Below are positions 6,469 to 12,063 of a stretch of DNA of 16,213 nucleotides, piece after piece. The stretch spans positions 1 through 16,213 of the forward strand of contig JAPDJF010000028.1 in NCBI GenBank assembly GCA_029259185.1, written 5' to 3'. This stretch comes from Hadesarchaea archaeon. GTDB taxonomy: Archaea; Hadarchaeota; Hadarchaeia; Hadarchaeales; WYZ-LMO6. The notes beneath the pieces are model-generated. The model did no database searches, was not told the origin of the DNA, and worked only from the letters and a program-made list of their open reading frames with translations. Within the stretch, counting starts at the first letter, position 1. The number at the start of each line of letters is the position of its first letter. Both the position numbers and the translations under genes were made by a program.

Positions 6469-7949
<1,481 letters not shown>

Positions 7950-7984: not shown

Positions 7985-8056
7985 GGGCCCGTAGCTCAGT
8001 GGTAGAGCGTCGGCTTTGCAAGCCGAAGGTCCCGGGTTCGAGTCCCGGCGGGTCCA
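7985..8056 (+). tRNA. tRNA-Ala(UGC) in the 16S-23S spacer
   Basis: Acceptor GGGCCCG/CGGGTCC with G3:U70, anticodon arm TCGGC-TTTGCAA-GCCGA, T-arm CCGGG-TTCGAGT-CCCGG. Confidence 0.98.
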
Positions 8057-10308
8057 CATCAATATGCAACGTGCGGAGTCGGAGGAGTTCCGTGCGTGAA
8101 GGGCGAATAAGTTCATTAGATGACGCCACGCATAGGTTCCCAACGCCGGCCAAGTGGAAACGCTAAGCCACTTGGTGGATGGCTGGGCTCGAGCGCCGAG
8201 GAAGGTCGTGGCAAGCTGCGAAAAGCTCGGGCGAGGCGCATGCAGCCTTAGAACCCGAGATTACCGAATGGGAGTCCTGGAGGAGGGTTTGAACCTCCTC
8301 CGCTCGCGGCAGCGAGCGGGAACCCCGGGAAGTGAAACATCTCAGTACCGGGAGGAAGAGAAAGCAAATGCGATGCCCTCAGTAACGGCGAGTGAAGAGG
8401 GCACAGGGCAAACCGAACCTGGTGGCGAAAGTCACTGGGGATGTGGGGTTGTAGGACTTCCCCCAATTCCTCGCGCGGGAAGCCGAAGTTGCCTGGAATG
8501 GCACGCCGCAGAGGGTGAAAGCCCCGTAGGCGTAACTGCGCAGGATACGAGGGGAAGGATCCTGAGTAGGATGCCTTGGGATTGGCGTCCGAAGCTGGGA
8601 GTCACCAACTCCCAACCCTAAATACGTCTCGAGACCGATAGCGAACGCAGTACCGCGAGGGAAAGCTGAAAAGCACCCCGGAAGGGGGGTGAAAAGAGCC
8701 TGAAACCAAGTGGTGACAGTAGGATACGGCTCGAAAGAGATGATACCTCCCGAAGGAACCCGTCGTGAGACGGTAGTACGAGGGAGGGGAATCGGGGTCG
8801 TATCGTCCGTCTGGAATCACGGGCCAGGGAGTTCATCGTCGTGGCGAGGTTAAGGGGATAAACCCCGGAGCCTCAGCGAAAGCGAAGGTCCGCAACCCGA
8901 AAGGGTGAGGGACTGGGTGTTAAGAGCGCCCGGAGTCACGGCGATGAGACCCGAAACCGGGCGATCTAGTCCGGGGCAGGCTGAAGTCCCGTTTGGGGAT
9001 GGAGGGCCGAACCGGTCTTGACGTGCAATTCGGTCGGATGACCTCGGGCTAGTGGCGAAAGACCCATCAAGCCCGGTGATAGCTGGTTCCTCCCGAAGCT
9101 GGCCGCAGTCAGGCCCGGCGCGAGGTGGCTGGCCGTGTAGAGCACCGATTGCGGGGTGACAGGGGGAAACCCTTGCCCTCGCTGTCGAACTCCGAAGCGA
9201 CCAGCGCCGTAGACCGCCGGAGACGGGGTGCGGGGGGTAAGCTCCCGCTCCGAGAGGGGAACAACCCAGACCGAGGTTAAGGCCCCTAAATGCTGGCTAA
9301 GTGCAGAAATCCAAAGGGCGTCTCCACCCTAAGACAGCGGGGAGGTAGGCTCAGAAGCAGCCACCCTTTAAACAACGCGTAAAAGCGGACCCGTCGAGGG
9401 TGGGGGCACCGAAGATGGACGGGGCTCAAGCCAGCTGCCGAGACCTCGGGGCAGGCGAAGTATAGTAGCCTGATCCGGTAGGGAGGCGTCCCGCGTGGGC
9501 AGAAGCTCGGCCGTGAGGTCGAGTGGACCGCGTGGGAATGAGGATCCTGGTGGTAGTAACAGCGAAGTGGGGTGAGAATCCCCACCACCGAAGGGGCTCG
9601 GGTTCCTCGGCAACGATCGTCAGCCGAGGGTTAGTCGGTCCTGAGGTGGCCCTCAACCAGAGGCCACCGAAAGGGAATCCGGTTAATATTCCGGAACCAC
9701 CTAGGTACCAGCGGCAACGCAGGCTGGACTCCTGACATCTCGGGGTAGACCGAGTGAGGTCGTCGCCTCATCTAACCACTGAAGTCCGGGGAGTTCCGTA
9801 ATGGAGAGAACCGGATGAAAGTGGGAATGGCCTGCCGTTAGGTGGGTTCGGTTGATCCCTGGGATCCGTGAAAAGGGAGTCCGGAAATGGGATCCTAGGT
9901 GTCCGTACCTAGATCCGACACAGGTGCCCCTAGGTGAAAAGCCTAAGGTGTGTCGGGATACACCAGGTCAGGGAATTCGGCAAGTTAGCCCCGTAACTTC
10001 GGGAGAAGGGGTGCCTGCCTTGCGGAAGGCAGGTCGCAGTGACAAGGGGGGACCGACTGTTTAATAAAAACGTAGGTTCCCGCAAGCCCGAAAGGGTGTG
10101 TACGGGAGCTGAATTCTGCCTACAGGCGGTACGTGAAAGCAGGGTTCAACCTGCCGAAGCGCCGCCAATGGGCGGGGGTAACTATAACCCTCGAGTGAGG
10201 GGGTTGTAAAACCCGGCTGTATGCGGGGAAGATCAGAAAAGCGGACTACCCTCTTGGGTAACAAGGTCCGCATTTGATGAGGTCGACCCGCAGGAAACCC
10301 CTGAGAGT

Positions 10309-10323
10309 CAGAAAGCATAAGTA
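10309..10323 (+). promoter_or_regulatory. Putative intron-internal promoter for the homing endonuclease
   Basis: CAGAAAG-CATAAGTA resembles the rRNA promoter GAAAAGT-CTTAAGTA. Standard spacing predicts a TSS at C/G 10345/10346, 8 nt before GTG 10354. Confidence 0.5.
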
Positions 10324-10353
10324 TTTGACAAAGTCCCTCTTAAACGGGGATCG

Positions 10354-10995
10354 GTGTCGCTGGCTTACTTGGTGGGCTTGATGCTTGGCGATGGCGGCGT
10401 TTACGGGGACACGTATACGGTTTTCTGTAGGGACAAGGATGAGGAGTTCGTACGTCGCTGTGCAGAGACGGTCAAAAAAGTGTTCGGAGTTCAACCAAGA
10501 GTCCACAGAGCGGCCCCTAATTGCTGGGCCGTTAGCACGAACCGCCGGGATATCCACCGCTTCATGTGCAAACTCGGATACCCCAAAGGACGGAAGTTGA
10601 CCACAGCAGGAATCCCCTTGACTTTCCTGAAGACTGAGAGTGATAAGATCGATGTTATCAAAGGGCTGTTCGATGCGGAGGGGTACTGTGGGGTCGATAG
10701 ACAGAAGCACGGGGACAAGGTTTACCAATACCCGTACGTCGGCATCGACATGATAGCAAAGCCCATGATCAAAGAGGTGAAAAAAATTCTCGGAGAATTG
10801 GGCATCGGTAGTACCCTTCAAGTCAAGAAGCCCCACGCTTGGGGGAAGCATCCCCAGTGGTCCATAATCATCAAAGGAAAAGAGAGAGTAGCGAAGTTTG
10901 AGAAAATCGTGGGGTTCAGACATCCGGTGAAGTCAGCACGTTTGAGAGAACTCGTTGAGGGGGGATCCCCAGAGACCATACGCCGGGCACCCTGA
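10354..10995 (+). CDS. Double-motif LAGLIDADG homing endonuclease (intron-encoded)
   Basis: Motif 1 LAYLVGLMLGDG, motif 2 VIKGLFDAEG. The C-terminal GSPETIRRAP is read through the ribozyme P7/P3' core, with the stop in P8. Confidence 0.93.
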   Translation: MSLAYLVGLMLGDGGVYGDTYTVFCRDKDEEFVRRCAETVKKVFGVQPRVHRAAPNCWAVSTNRRDIHRFMCKLGYPKGRKLTTAGIPLTFLKTESDKIDVIKGLFDAEGYCGVDRQKHGDKVYQYPYVGIDMIAKPMIKEVKKILGELGIGSTLQVKKPHAWGKHPQWSIIIKGKERVAKFEKIVGFRHPVKSARLRELVEGGSPETIRRAP

Positions 10996-11058
10996 TTAGA
11001 AGGGTGATGATATGGTCCACCCTTTTCGATAGGGAAAAGGGCGCTTAAGGTAGCGTAA

Positions 11059-11090
<32 letters not shown>

Positions 11091-11677
11091 GGAATCAACG
11101 AGTCCCCCACTGTCCCGACCTGGAACCCGGTGAACCCGCTTGCCGGCGAACATGCCGGGGTCCCCCGAAGGGAAACGAAGACCCCGTGGACCTTTACTGC
11201 AGCCTGTCGCTGAAACGCGGTTGCGGGTGCAGAGGGTAGGCGGGAGCCTGCGAAGCCGGATCTCCGGGTCCGGTGGAGGCATCGATGTAACACCGCCCAC
11301 CCCTAACCACGTTTCTAACCCCGCGAGGGGAACACCGACAGGTGGGCAGTTTCGCTGGGGCGGCAGCCCCTCGAAAAGATATCGAGGGGGTCCAAAGGTC
11401 GGCTTAGGTGGGTCAGAACTCCGCCGGTAAGGACAAGGCCAAAAGCCGGCCTGACTGCGTGCTCACTACCAAGGCACGCAGGGGCGAAAGCCGGGCCTAG
11501 CGAACCCAGATGTCCCTCTTGGTGAGGGCTCTGGATGACAGAAAAGGTACCCCGGGGATAACAGAGTGGTCGCGGGCGAGAGTCCATATCGACCCCGCGG
11601 TTTGCTACCTCGATGTCGGTTCTTCCTATCCTGGTCGTGCATAGGCGGCCAAGGGTCGGGTTGTTCGCCCATCAAAA

Positions 11678-11719
<42 letters not shown>

Positions 11720-12063
11720 TGCTATCTTTCGGGGGTGTTCGGTGTCTGAGGGGAAGGTGTCCCTAGTACGAGAGGAACGGGACGCCGGCGCCTCTGGTGT
11801 ACCGGTTGTCCGACAGGGCATCGCCGGGTAGCCACGCGCCAGTCGATAAGGCCTGAAAGCATCTAAGGCCGAAGCGACTCCCGAAAATAGACACCGTGTC
11901 CGGCTGCCTCGCAAGGGGTGGTCGGCGGAGAGCTGGGGCTAGAAGACCCCGTTGATAGGCCGGGGGTGTACGCGCGGAGCTTCGGCGACGCGTTCAGCCC
12001 ACCGGTACTAATCGCTCGAACTCCATTTGGCTGGTTGGGAACCTGTGTGTGGCCTTTTTTTAA

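Follow-up and report, generated by a model that had tools for sequence, protein, structure and literature searches.

Which kind of intron interrupts the 23S rRNA gene of a Hadesarchaea archaeon, and where does the protein encoded within it come from? These questions are raised by a 16,213-nucleotide (nt) stretch of DNA (contig JAPDJF010000028.1 of assembly GCA_029259185.1; hereafter, the window), in which helix 69 of the 23S rRNA is split by an insertion carrying an open reading frame (ORF). The default expectation for introns in archaeal rRNA genes is the bulge-helix-bulge (BHB) type (PMC6125680, introduction). An earlier note, made from the letters of the window alone, had proposed a group I ribozyme intron at large-subunit (LSU) position 1923 (L1923) together with a two-motif LAGLIDADG enzyme. 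The present analysis indicates that the insertion is very probably an L1923 group I intron of the self-splicing type, spread by a two-motif endonuclease that is encoded in its loop L6 and has a separate history, in a Hadesarchaea-type host.

Insertion site and reality of the DNA

The rRNA operon of the window was located by an Rfam scan and consists of a 16S gene (6469-7949), a tRNA gene (7985-8056) and a 23S gene (8151-12029). Between ...UAUAACCCUC and GUAGCG, alignment of the 23S gene to the Rfam LSU model is broken by about 857 inserted nt, and three intronless relatives (L011-L013) read GTAACTATAACCCTCTTAAGGTAGCG across the predicted junction. The intron, preceded by U10191 and ending in G11043, therefore occupies positions 10192-11043, which is exactly the span that the earlier note had given. 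U10191 is presumably U1923 of Escherichia coli in the numbering of helix 69. At all three of the intronless loci that were read, the uninterrupted target matches the ligated exons along 26 nt without a difference.

The source genome is a metagenome-assembled genome (MAG) of 1.27 Mb in 54 contigs, about 95% complete, of which the window is contig 25. The stretch was found in five DNA runs labelled hydrothermal vent metagenome, four from one study, which may be the source of the genome, and one from a second study. The host organism is an archaeon of the Hadesarchaea type, sampled in metagenomes of deep-sea hydrothermal vents. In one run (X1), a single DNA contig spans positions 10054-11066 with 0 differences and at a depth equal to that of the flanks, and the run of the second study (X5) gave four 151-nt pieces with 0-1 differences, three of them inside the intron and one over the 5' junction. 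The difference-free contig at flank depth, together with these pieces, shows that the intron DNA is real.

Covariation of the ribozyme fold

A DNA search of 40 related genomes returned full-length homologues of the intron in six, at 69-78% identity. The canonical group I fold was written on an alignment of the resulting seven introns (A1), on which the pairing counts given here are based. Over 52 pairs (360 cells), 97.2% of the cells were paired, compared with 45-52% when the 3' partners were slid by 1-3 columns. Two-sided changes were observed in 16 of the 52 pairs, a number reached in none of 500 shuffles, and the compensatory pairs are distributed over P1 (one), P3 (two), P5 (two), P6a (three), P7 (one), P8 (four) and P9 (three).

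P1 joins 10183-10192 to 10199-10208 in ten pairs, with 97% of the cells paired, and includes U10191.G10200, with U.G present in all seven introns. In one homologue (G029), the exon GACCCU is matched by the guide GGGGUC, the other copies having AACCCU with GGGGUU, so that an exon A-to-G change is met by a U-to-C change in the guide. In a wider comparison of 37 L1923 introns, drawn from many phyla, 32 were found to form all six base pairs of P1, U.G included, at a constant spacing from the P3-P4 anchor, with six distinct exon/guide combinations among them. The five misses are three bacterial introns with one mismatch each (by eye), one archaeal intron whose exon was uncaptured by the pattern, and one intron that lacks a P4 anchor.

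P2 is absent, AAA (10209-10211) alone lying between P1 and P3. The extension of P5 (10234-10281) is variable, with a conserved GGUAACAA bulge in the minimum-free-energy fold, and in G036 a short hairpin stands in its place. P8 (10988-93 with 11001-06) and J8/7 (11007-10) both fall within the 3' half of the catalytic core, and the column of the terminal G11043 is invariant in all seven introns. The P3 and P6 pairings span the ORF, which therefore sits in loop L6. Among the pairings that had been claimed for the core, P1, P3, P7, P8 and P9, and with them the P3/P7 pseudoknot, are thus borne out by covariation, and the U.G pair and the terminal G are kept in every copy.

Group I signature and absence of a bulge-helix-bulge motif

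The Rfam model Intron_gpI (RF00028) matches positions 10859-11038 of the window with 32.8 bits (E 2.3e-6) and is well aligned over the 10971..11017 part of the hit. Its placement of P3 and P4-P6 inside the ORF was rejected, because the true P3 and P6, as identified by covariation, span the ORF. A related genome of the same order (G038; locus L162, G038:C10:1-700, about 134-539) carries an intron of about 406-420 nt at LSU 1931, between the exon ends ...CTTAAGGT and AGCGTAATACC, which holds a mere remnant of a single-motif LAGLIDADG ORF; this intron scores over the Rfam threshold (53.6 bits for Intron_gpI) and has the conserved P4 and J6/7-P7 motifs in common with the window intron.

Introns of the BHB type were sought as a 4-bp central helix with flanking helices, each splice site lying in a bulge of 3 nt. 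With every bulge offset tried in 15 introns, no such motif appeared at the junctions of the nine Hadesarchaea-type copies, the best case having three of the four central pairs and no inner helix. A covarying core, a guide that tracks its exon in 32 of 37 L1923 introns and the lack of a BHB fit together support the assignment of the window intron to group I rather than to the BHB type, as the earlier note had suggested. The subtype would be IB4, an assignment made by site and taxon and not by model score.

The two-motif endonuclease

The ORF in L6 was predicted to encode a 213-residue protein starting at GTG; its six homologues have ATG at the aligned start or at most two codons from it. The database gene call begins nine codons downstream, which would truncate the first motif. 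Pfam LAGLIDADG_3 (PF14528) matches the window protein in two stretches with 60.1 bits against a cut-off of 22.5, and homologues with 38.7 and 51.6 bits. Motif 1 lies at about residues 3-15 (...LMLGDGG, ending in D13) and motif 2 at about 101-110 (...GLFDAEG, with E109). The acidic residue that ends each LAGLIDADG motif is catalytic; D13 and E109 are invariant in the seven introns, and in an alignment of 26 sequences E109 is invariant and D13 at least 90% conserved. The ORF is intact in all seven introns and is under purifying selection: dN/dS was 0.08-0.12 in the 4 of 21 pairs with unsaturated dS, and pN/pS was 0.20-0.38 in the other 17.

An AlphaFold2 model built from 26 homologues (pLDDT 90.5, pTM 0.86) has a doubled alpha-beta-beta-alpha-beta-beta-alpha topology. 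In a Foldseek search, it matched I-Tsp061I (2dch) first, with E 4.3e-14 and template-modelling (TM) scores of 0.72/0.75, followed by the TliVMA and PI-PfuI inteins (5e-11), PI-SceI and I-DmoI (about 3e-8), and the order given by the sequence profile was identical. I-CeuI was not matched at E<=1 by a profile of the seven window-type sequences, nor was Pfam PF00961 (LAGLIDADG_1) matched at E<=1 in the window ORF. These results, which agree with the earlier description of the protein as a two-motif enzyme resembling intein and archaeal endonucleases, support its identification as a monomeric LAGLIDADG_3 endonuclease with putative cleavage activity. In a look-up of the homologue cluster, the names given were nothing beyond "LAGLIDADG family homing endonuclease".

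The last 12 or so codons of the ORF overlap P6', J6/7, P7, P3' and P8, and the stop codon TGA (10993-95) lies in P8/L8. In the corresponding C-terminal tail (window 10944-10995; loci L004-L008), the homologues use two frames, reading GGSSETIR... or GDPQRPYA...; two of them are in the frame other than that of the window, and three continue across P7-P9 as far as a TAG in the 3' exon. The tail is disordered in the AlphaFold2 model. The tail is therefore shaped by the RNA and not by the protein, conservation in this stretch being that of the ribozyme core.

Distribution and two enzyme lineages in one ribozyme

Among the 40 relatives, six carry the intron (in three families), 15 have an uninterrupted L1923, one is cut by a contig end at this point and 18 gave no rRNA match. 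The pair of ribozyme and enzyme is present in at least nine Hadesarchaea-type genomes, and the ribozyme with a LAGLIDADG_3 enzyme (51-57% identity) was also found at L1923 in MAGs of Calditenuis, Calditenuaceae, Caldarchaeales and Nitrososphaerota. This patchy spread and the presence in other phyla fit a homing element and are no proof of current activity.

The core pattern J6/7-P7-P3'...P7' occurs in at least 120 GTDB species, many of them bacteria (Actinomycetota, Chloroflexota, Armatimonadota and Patescibacteria). Eighty core-pattern loci were fetched, of which 29 are at L1923 (six bacterial) and 51 elsewhere, the latter comprising, by eye, L1931, a helix-69 loop site, tandem arrangements and tRNA genes. 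Eight of the ORFs among the 29 L1923 loci listed are of the two-motif LAGLIDADG_3 class and 21 of the single-motif LAGLIDADG_1 class, with no cross-hit between the two classes at E<=10 among these loci; all six bacterial L1923 copies among the matches listed carry the LAGLIDADG_1 type. The single-motif type (Pfam LAGLIDADG_1) matches halves of I-SmaMI and I-OnuI, I-Vdi141I (3e54) and I-CeuI (2ex5, E 4.5e-11). Since two unrelated LAGLIDADG genes occupy one loop of homologous L1923 ribozymes, the histories of ribozyme and endonuclease must be separate. The independent endonuclease invasion that the earlier note had postulated is supported by these counts; its novelty was overstated, the event not being private to this genome.

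A ribozyme tree was calculated from 36 taxa and 178 columns, L095 having been excluded because it has no P4 anchor. The tree unites the nine Hadesarchaea-type introns in one clade, with a support of 82, and the 15 two-motif introns are non-monophyletic in the best tree. Forcing them to be monophyletic costs 11.2 units of log-likelihood, with p 0.041 in the approximately unbiased test and 0.058 in both the Kishino-Hasegawa and the Shimodaira-Hasegawa tests. Monophyly of the two-motif introns thus appears disfavoured at a borderline level, and neither a number nor a direction of exchanges is claimed.

Outside L1923 introns, the nearest relatives of the window enzyme are inteins of archaeal release factor 1 (aRF1), at 23-28% identity. 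These inteins (L024-L027) follow the GGQ motif and combine a LAGLIDADG_3 domain with HTH_3, an arrangement Pfam-confirmed for L024 only. A two-motif ORF in the relative G035 was considered as a donor and rejected, having 24% identity over 119 residues and no profile match. It belongs to an insertion of about 650 nt (161-810 of L161, G035:C8:6450-7450) in the helix-69 loop after GGGGGTA; the ORF is of the LAGLIDADG_3 type, ends after an A-run and seemingly continues in another frame. An Rfam group I match was not found in this insertion, which is possibly a BHB intron. A further extra stretch of about 34 nt follows GGTAGCGTAA at 835-868 of the same locus.

Several other loci were observed during the survey. 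An otherwise intronless relative (L010, G015:C4) has a hairpin-forming insert of about 31 nt in the helix-69 loop, between GTAACTATA and ACCCTCTTAAGG, which may be a mini-intron or an expansion. Among L041-L120, the core motif is seen in numerous bacterial 23S genes, frequently in a tandem pair of introns a few bases apart (for example L044, L050, L064), and also beside tRNA-like 3' ends (L047, L078, L115, L119). One Hadarchaeum MAG has both a two-motif L1923 intron (L021/L040) and, on a separate 2.5-kb contig (NZ_JBMFOX010000080.1), a single-motif L1923 intron (L085), which is near-identical to that of a Brockarchaeota MAG (L082); the contig may represent another operon of this MAG or a mistake in binning. 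In L104 (JBEPYN010000001.1), the longest ORF of the L1923 intron has 354 residues and resembles two LAGLIDADG_1 units in series.

A conserved block upstream of the endonuclease gene

A 14-nt block precedes the ORF in L6 and is conserved as A[AG]AGTCCCTCTTAA in eight of the nine Hadesarchaea-type introns, 10-25 nt before the start codon. The G018 copy has a variant block, and its downstream purine run is altered to match (UUCCUCUU / AAGAGGAA). The block is absent from the Caldarchaeales and Nitrososphaerota copies. Local hairpins occur at the block in most copies. Nine of its letters equal the ligated-exon junction CCCUCUUAA; by chance, an 852-nt intron would share a 9-mer with a 26-nt site about 0.06 times. 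By eye, AGUCCCU of the block can pair in all seven positions with GGGGGUU of the guide; a U.G pair would then mark the point of cleavage, and the CUUAA that follows resembles the 3' exon.

It is doubtful that the block is a working part of the element. We can only guess at roles: the excised intron could cut or circularise at the block and so release the endonuclease mRNA, or the pyrimidine block could mask a purine-rich ribosome-binding stretch until the intron is excised. Possibly, the block marks the place where an endonuclease recognising that sequence first cut and entered the intron. The features of the locus are collected in Table 1.

Table 1. Coordinates of the intron, its ribozyme elements, its ORF and its host gene in the window.
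Feature	Coordinates	Strand	Basis or detail
Group I intron, 852 nt, LSU position 1923	10192..11043	+	Intronless alleles L011-L013, covariation, partial RF00028 match
Host 23S rRNA gene	8151..12029	+	Match to Rfam LSU_rRNA_archaea over the full model (1-2987), 2756.8 bits
P1 strand in the 5' exon (3' strand of helix 69), last base splice-site U10191	10183..10191	+	Pairs with 10200-10208
Internal guide sequence (P1 3' strand)	10199..10208	+	Covariation; exon/guide comparison of 37 introns
P3 5' strand	10212..10217	+	Pairs with 10982-10987 across the whole intron; 6 pairs, 100% paired, 2 compensatory
P4, P5 and P5 extension	10222..10292	+	P4 10222-27 with 10287-92; P5 10231-33 with 10282-84, 2/3 pairs compensatory
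P6 5' strands	10293..10302	+	GG 10293-94 with CC 10969-70; CCCCU 10298-10302 with 10959-63; P6a 3/5 compensatory
Conserved block AAAGTCCCTCTTAA in L6	10330..10343	+	11 nt before ORF start; 10335-10343 repeats ligated-exon junction CCCTCTTAA
Homing endonuclease ORF, 213 aa, GTG start	10354..10995	+	Pfam PF14528, two LAGLIDADG motifs
P6a and P6 3' strands	10959..10970	+	Covariation
Catalytic core, 3' half	10971..11017	+	J6/7 AGA 10971-73; P7 10974-80 with 11011-17; P3' 10982-87
P9 hairpin and terminal G11043	11020..11043	+	P9 11020-26 with 11035-41, 3 compensatory; G invariant
3' exon start (CTTAAGGTAGC)	11044..11054	+	Intronless alleles

Proposed mechanism and alternative explanations

According to the mechanism that we favour, the precursor of the 23S rRNA would fold with its exon end AACCCU paired to the guide GGGGUU as P1, an external guanosine bound in P7 would attack after U10191, and the freed 5' exon would then attack after G11043, which would restore helix 69. 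The L6-encoded monomeric endonuclease would cut intronless 23S genes, most likely around the junction of ...TAACTATAACCCT and CTTAAGGTAGCG, and repair of the break would copy the intron into the intronless gene by homing. The enzyme gene is of the LAGLIDADG_3 lineage of archaeal introns and inteins and lies in the loop in which most L1923 introns hold an I-CeuI-type LAGLIDADG_1 gene. The ribozyme would probably be thermostable, and the proposed target would be cleaved.

Several points weigh against this account. Splicing and DNA cleavage were deduced from anatomy and sequence alone. P4, which the earlier note had counted among the pairings of the core, is invariant in the seven introns and so carries no covariation information, and P10, which it had also listed, has as its candidate 10197-10199 with 11044-11046 (3 bp in the window) and amounts to merely 2-4 bp across the seven sequences, by eye on the alignment. 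The Rfam score of the window lies below the RF00028 gathering score of 50; this low score, with only the 3' part matched, is explained by the 640-nt ORF that splits the core. A homologue with the other enzyme type (L028) gave no Rfam match at E<=0.01. The IB4 label rests on the classing, by Nawrocki et al., of all their archaeal LSU/1923 introns as IB4. Translation would compete with folding, given the GTG start and the 3' end of the ORF lying over P6'-P8. Finally, two metatranscriptome-labelled hot-spring runs of another study (X6 and X7) contain many contigs with a 10191-to-11044 joint and low cover of 10929-11026; the joint was rejected as evidence of splicing because intronless relatives give the same joint, and these runs, which do not demonstrably hold the window organism, are no evidence either way.

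Alternatively, a group I-derived intron may have lost self-splicing, the LAGLIDADG protein acting as a maturase, or host factors being needed, and the protein being kept for splicing rather than for homing. LAGLIDADG maturases are known: the fold matches of the enzyme include I-AniI, whose title calls it a bifunctional homing endonuclease and splicing factor. In addition, the ORF is under purifying selection in all seven introns, and the ribozyme has no P2 and a short P10. Nevertheless, we regard this explanation as unlikely, because the catalytic acids D13 and E109 are kept in all seven introns, the distribution in relatives and phyla is patchy, as active homing would give, and the core helices are complete and G+C-rich.

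A BHB intron removed by the splicing endonuclease EndA, as are most characterised archaeal rRNA introns with LAGLIDADG genes, would satisfy the default expectation for archaea (PMC6125680) and would be in keeping with the fact that the nearest solved relatives of the enzyme come from BHB introns, I-Tsp061I according to the title of entry 2dch and I-DmoI among them. It is nonetheless very improbable, as none of the nine Hadesarchaea-type junction pairs forms a 4-bp central helix with flanking helices and the covarying conserved structure is a group I core. Still harder to credit is an assembly chimera, an intervening sequence that stays unspliced or an rRNA operon that is dead and has taken up an insertion. 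The genome is indeed a MAG of 54 contigs; however, a single DNA contig crosses both junctions without differences at flank-like depth, the rRNA scores over its full length, and six of the 40 relatives, as well as members of other phyla, have homologous introns at this site. Helix 69 is a functionally essential bridge, and 852 nt left unremoved within it would be unlikely to be tolerated. A group I intron with an endonuclease of separate history thus remains the explanation that we prefer.

The window intron has a compact core, seven homologues that covary and exact intronless alleles, and so lends itself well to what would be the first test of in vitro splicing for an archaeal, probably thermophilic, group I ribozyme. 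Two unrelated LAGLIDADG lineages, one I-CeuI-like and homodimeric and the other intein-like and monomeric, have come to occupy one loop at one rRNA site, a natural experiment in which differing scaffolds read nearly identical 23S sequence. The window enzyme may also be a source of a thermostable monomeric meganuclease.

Comparison with known introns and endonucleases

A literature search found no paper in which an archaeal group I intron was spliced experimentally, nor one that brings together L1923, a group I intron and a homing endonuclease; in the excerpt consulted, a database paper of 2025 refers to group I introns of archaea solely via Nawrocki et al. The excerpted text of PMC3315327 describes I-CeuI as a homodimeric LAGLIDADG enzyme that cuts the n.1923 LSU site, in accordance with the role of L1923 enzyme that the earlier note had given it. 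The Chlamydomonas chloroplast LSU intron that carries I-CeuI, as far as this excerpt goes, has the rRNA site n.1923 and a LAGLIDADG enzyme in common with the window intron, the comparison being one of site and enzyme only; unlike I-CeuI, the window enzyme is a two-motif monomer of the LAGLIDADG_3 family. Archaeal and bacterial L1923 introns whose core is homologous to that of the window do carry a LAGLIDADG_1 gene matching I-CeuI. The window enzyme shares the two-motif pseudo-dimeric fold of I-Tsp061I, I-DmoI, PI-PfuI, TliVMA and PI-SceI; however, identity with I-Tsp061I, I-DmoI and the inteins is 17-20%, and those enzymes reside in BHB introns or inteins and have other targets, whereas the window enzyme is encoded in L6 of a group I intron. 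Bacterial 23S introns around helices 69-71 and tRNA introns have the same core motif of the ribozyme family, and the bacterial L1923 exon, AACGGU with a matching guide, differs from that of the window.

The closest known systems are the archaeal introns described by Nawrocki, Jones and Eddy in 2018, who reported 39 archaeal group I introns, all metagenomic, 27 of subtype IB4 and 12 of IA3 (PMC6125680). Nine of the IB4 introns, in Aigarchaeota, Thaumarchaeota, Micrarchaeota, Pacearchaeota and Aenigmarchaeota, are at LSU/1923 (IB4.7,.9,.11,.13,.17,.18,.20,.21 and.28), ORFs of the LAGLIDADG_1, _2 or _3 type are present in 21 of the 39, and the Hadesarchaea-derived records of Table 1 of that paper are IA3 introns at LSU/2500 only (PMC6125680). 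Both enzyme types at L1923 may already be contained in the expanded table of Nawrocki et al. The archaeal and metagenome-derived IB4 introns at LSU/1923 have host gene and insertion position in common with the window intron, and homologues of the latter were found in phyla covered by PMC6125680, namely Aigarchaeota/Caldarchaeales, Thaumarchaeota/Nitrososphaerota and Micrarchaeota. Relative to those IB4 introns, Hadesarchaea are an added L1923 host, the likeness being one of site and taxon, not of sequence alignment. It is thus well supported that the window intron is a further member of the known archaeal LSU/1923 class in an additional lineage and not a new kind of element: a well-documented addition to the group I introns that were predicted for archaea in 2018, which leaves the picture of archaeal introns unchanged.

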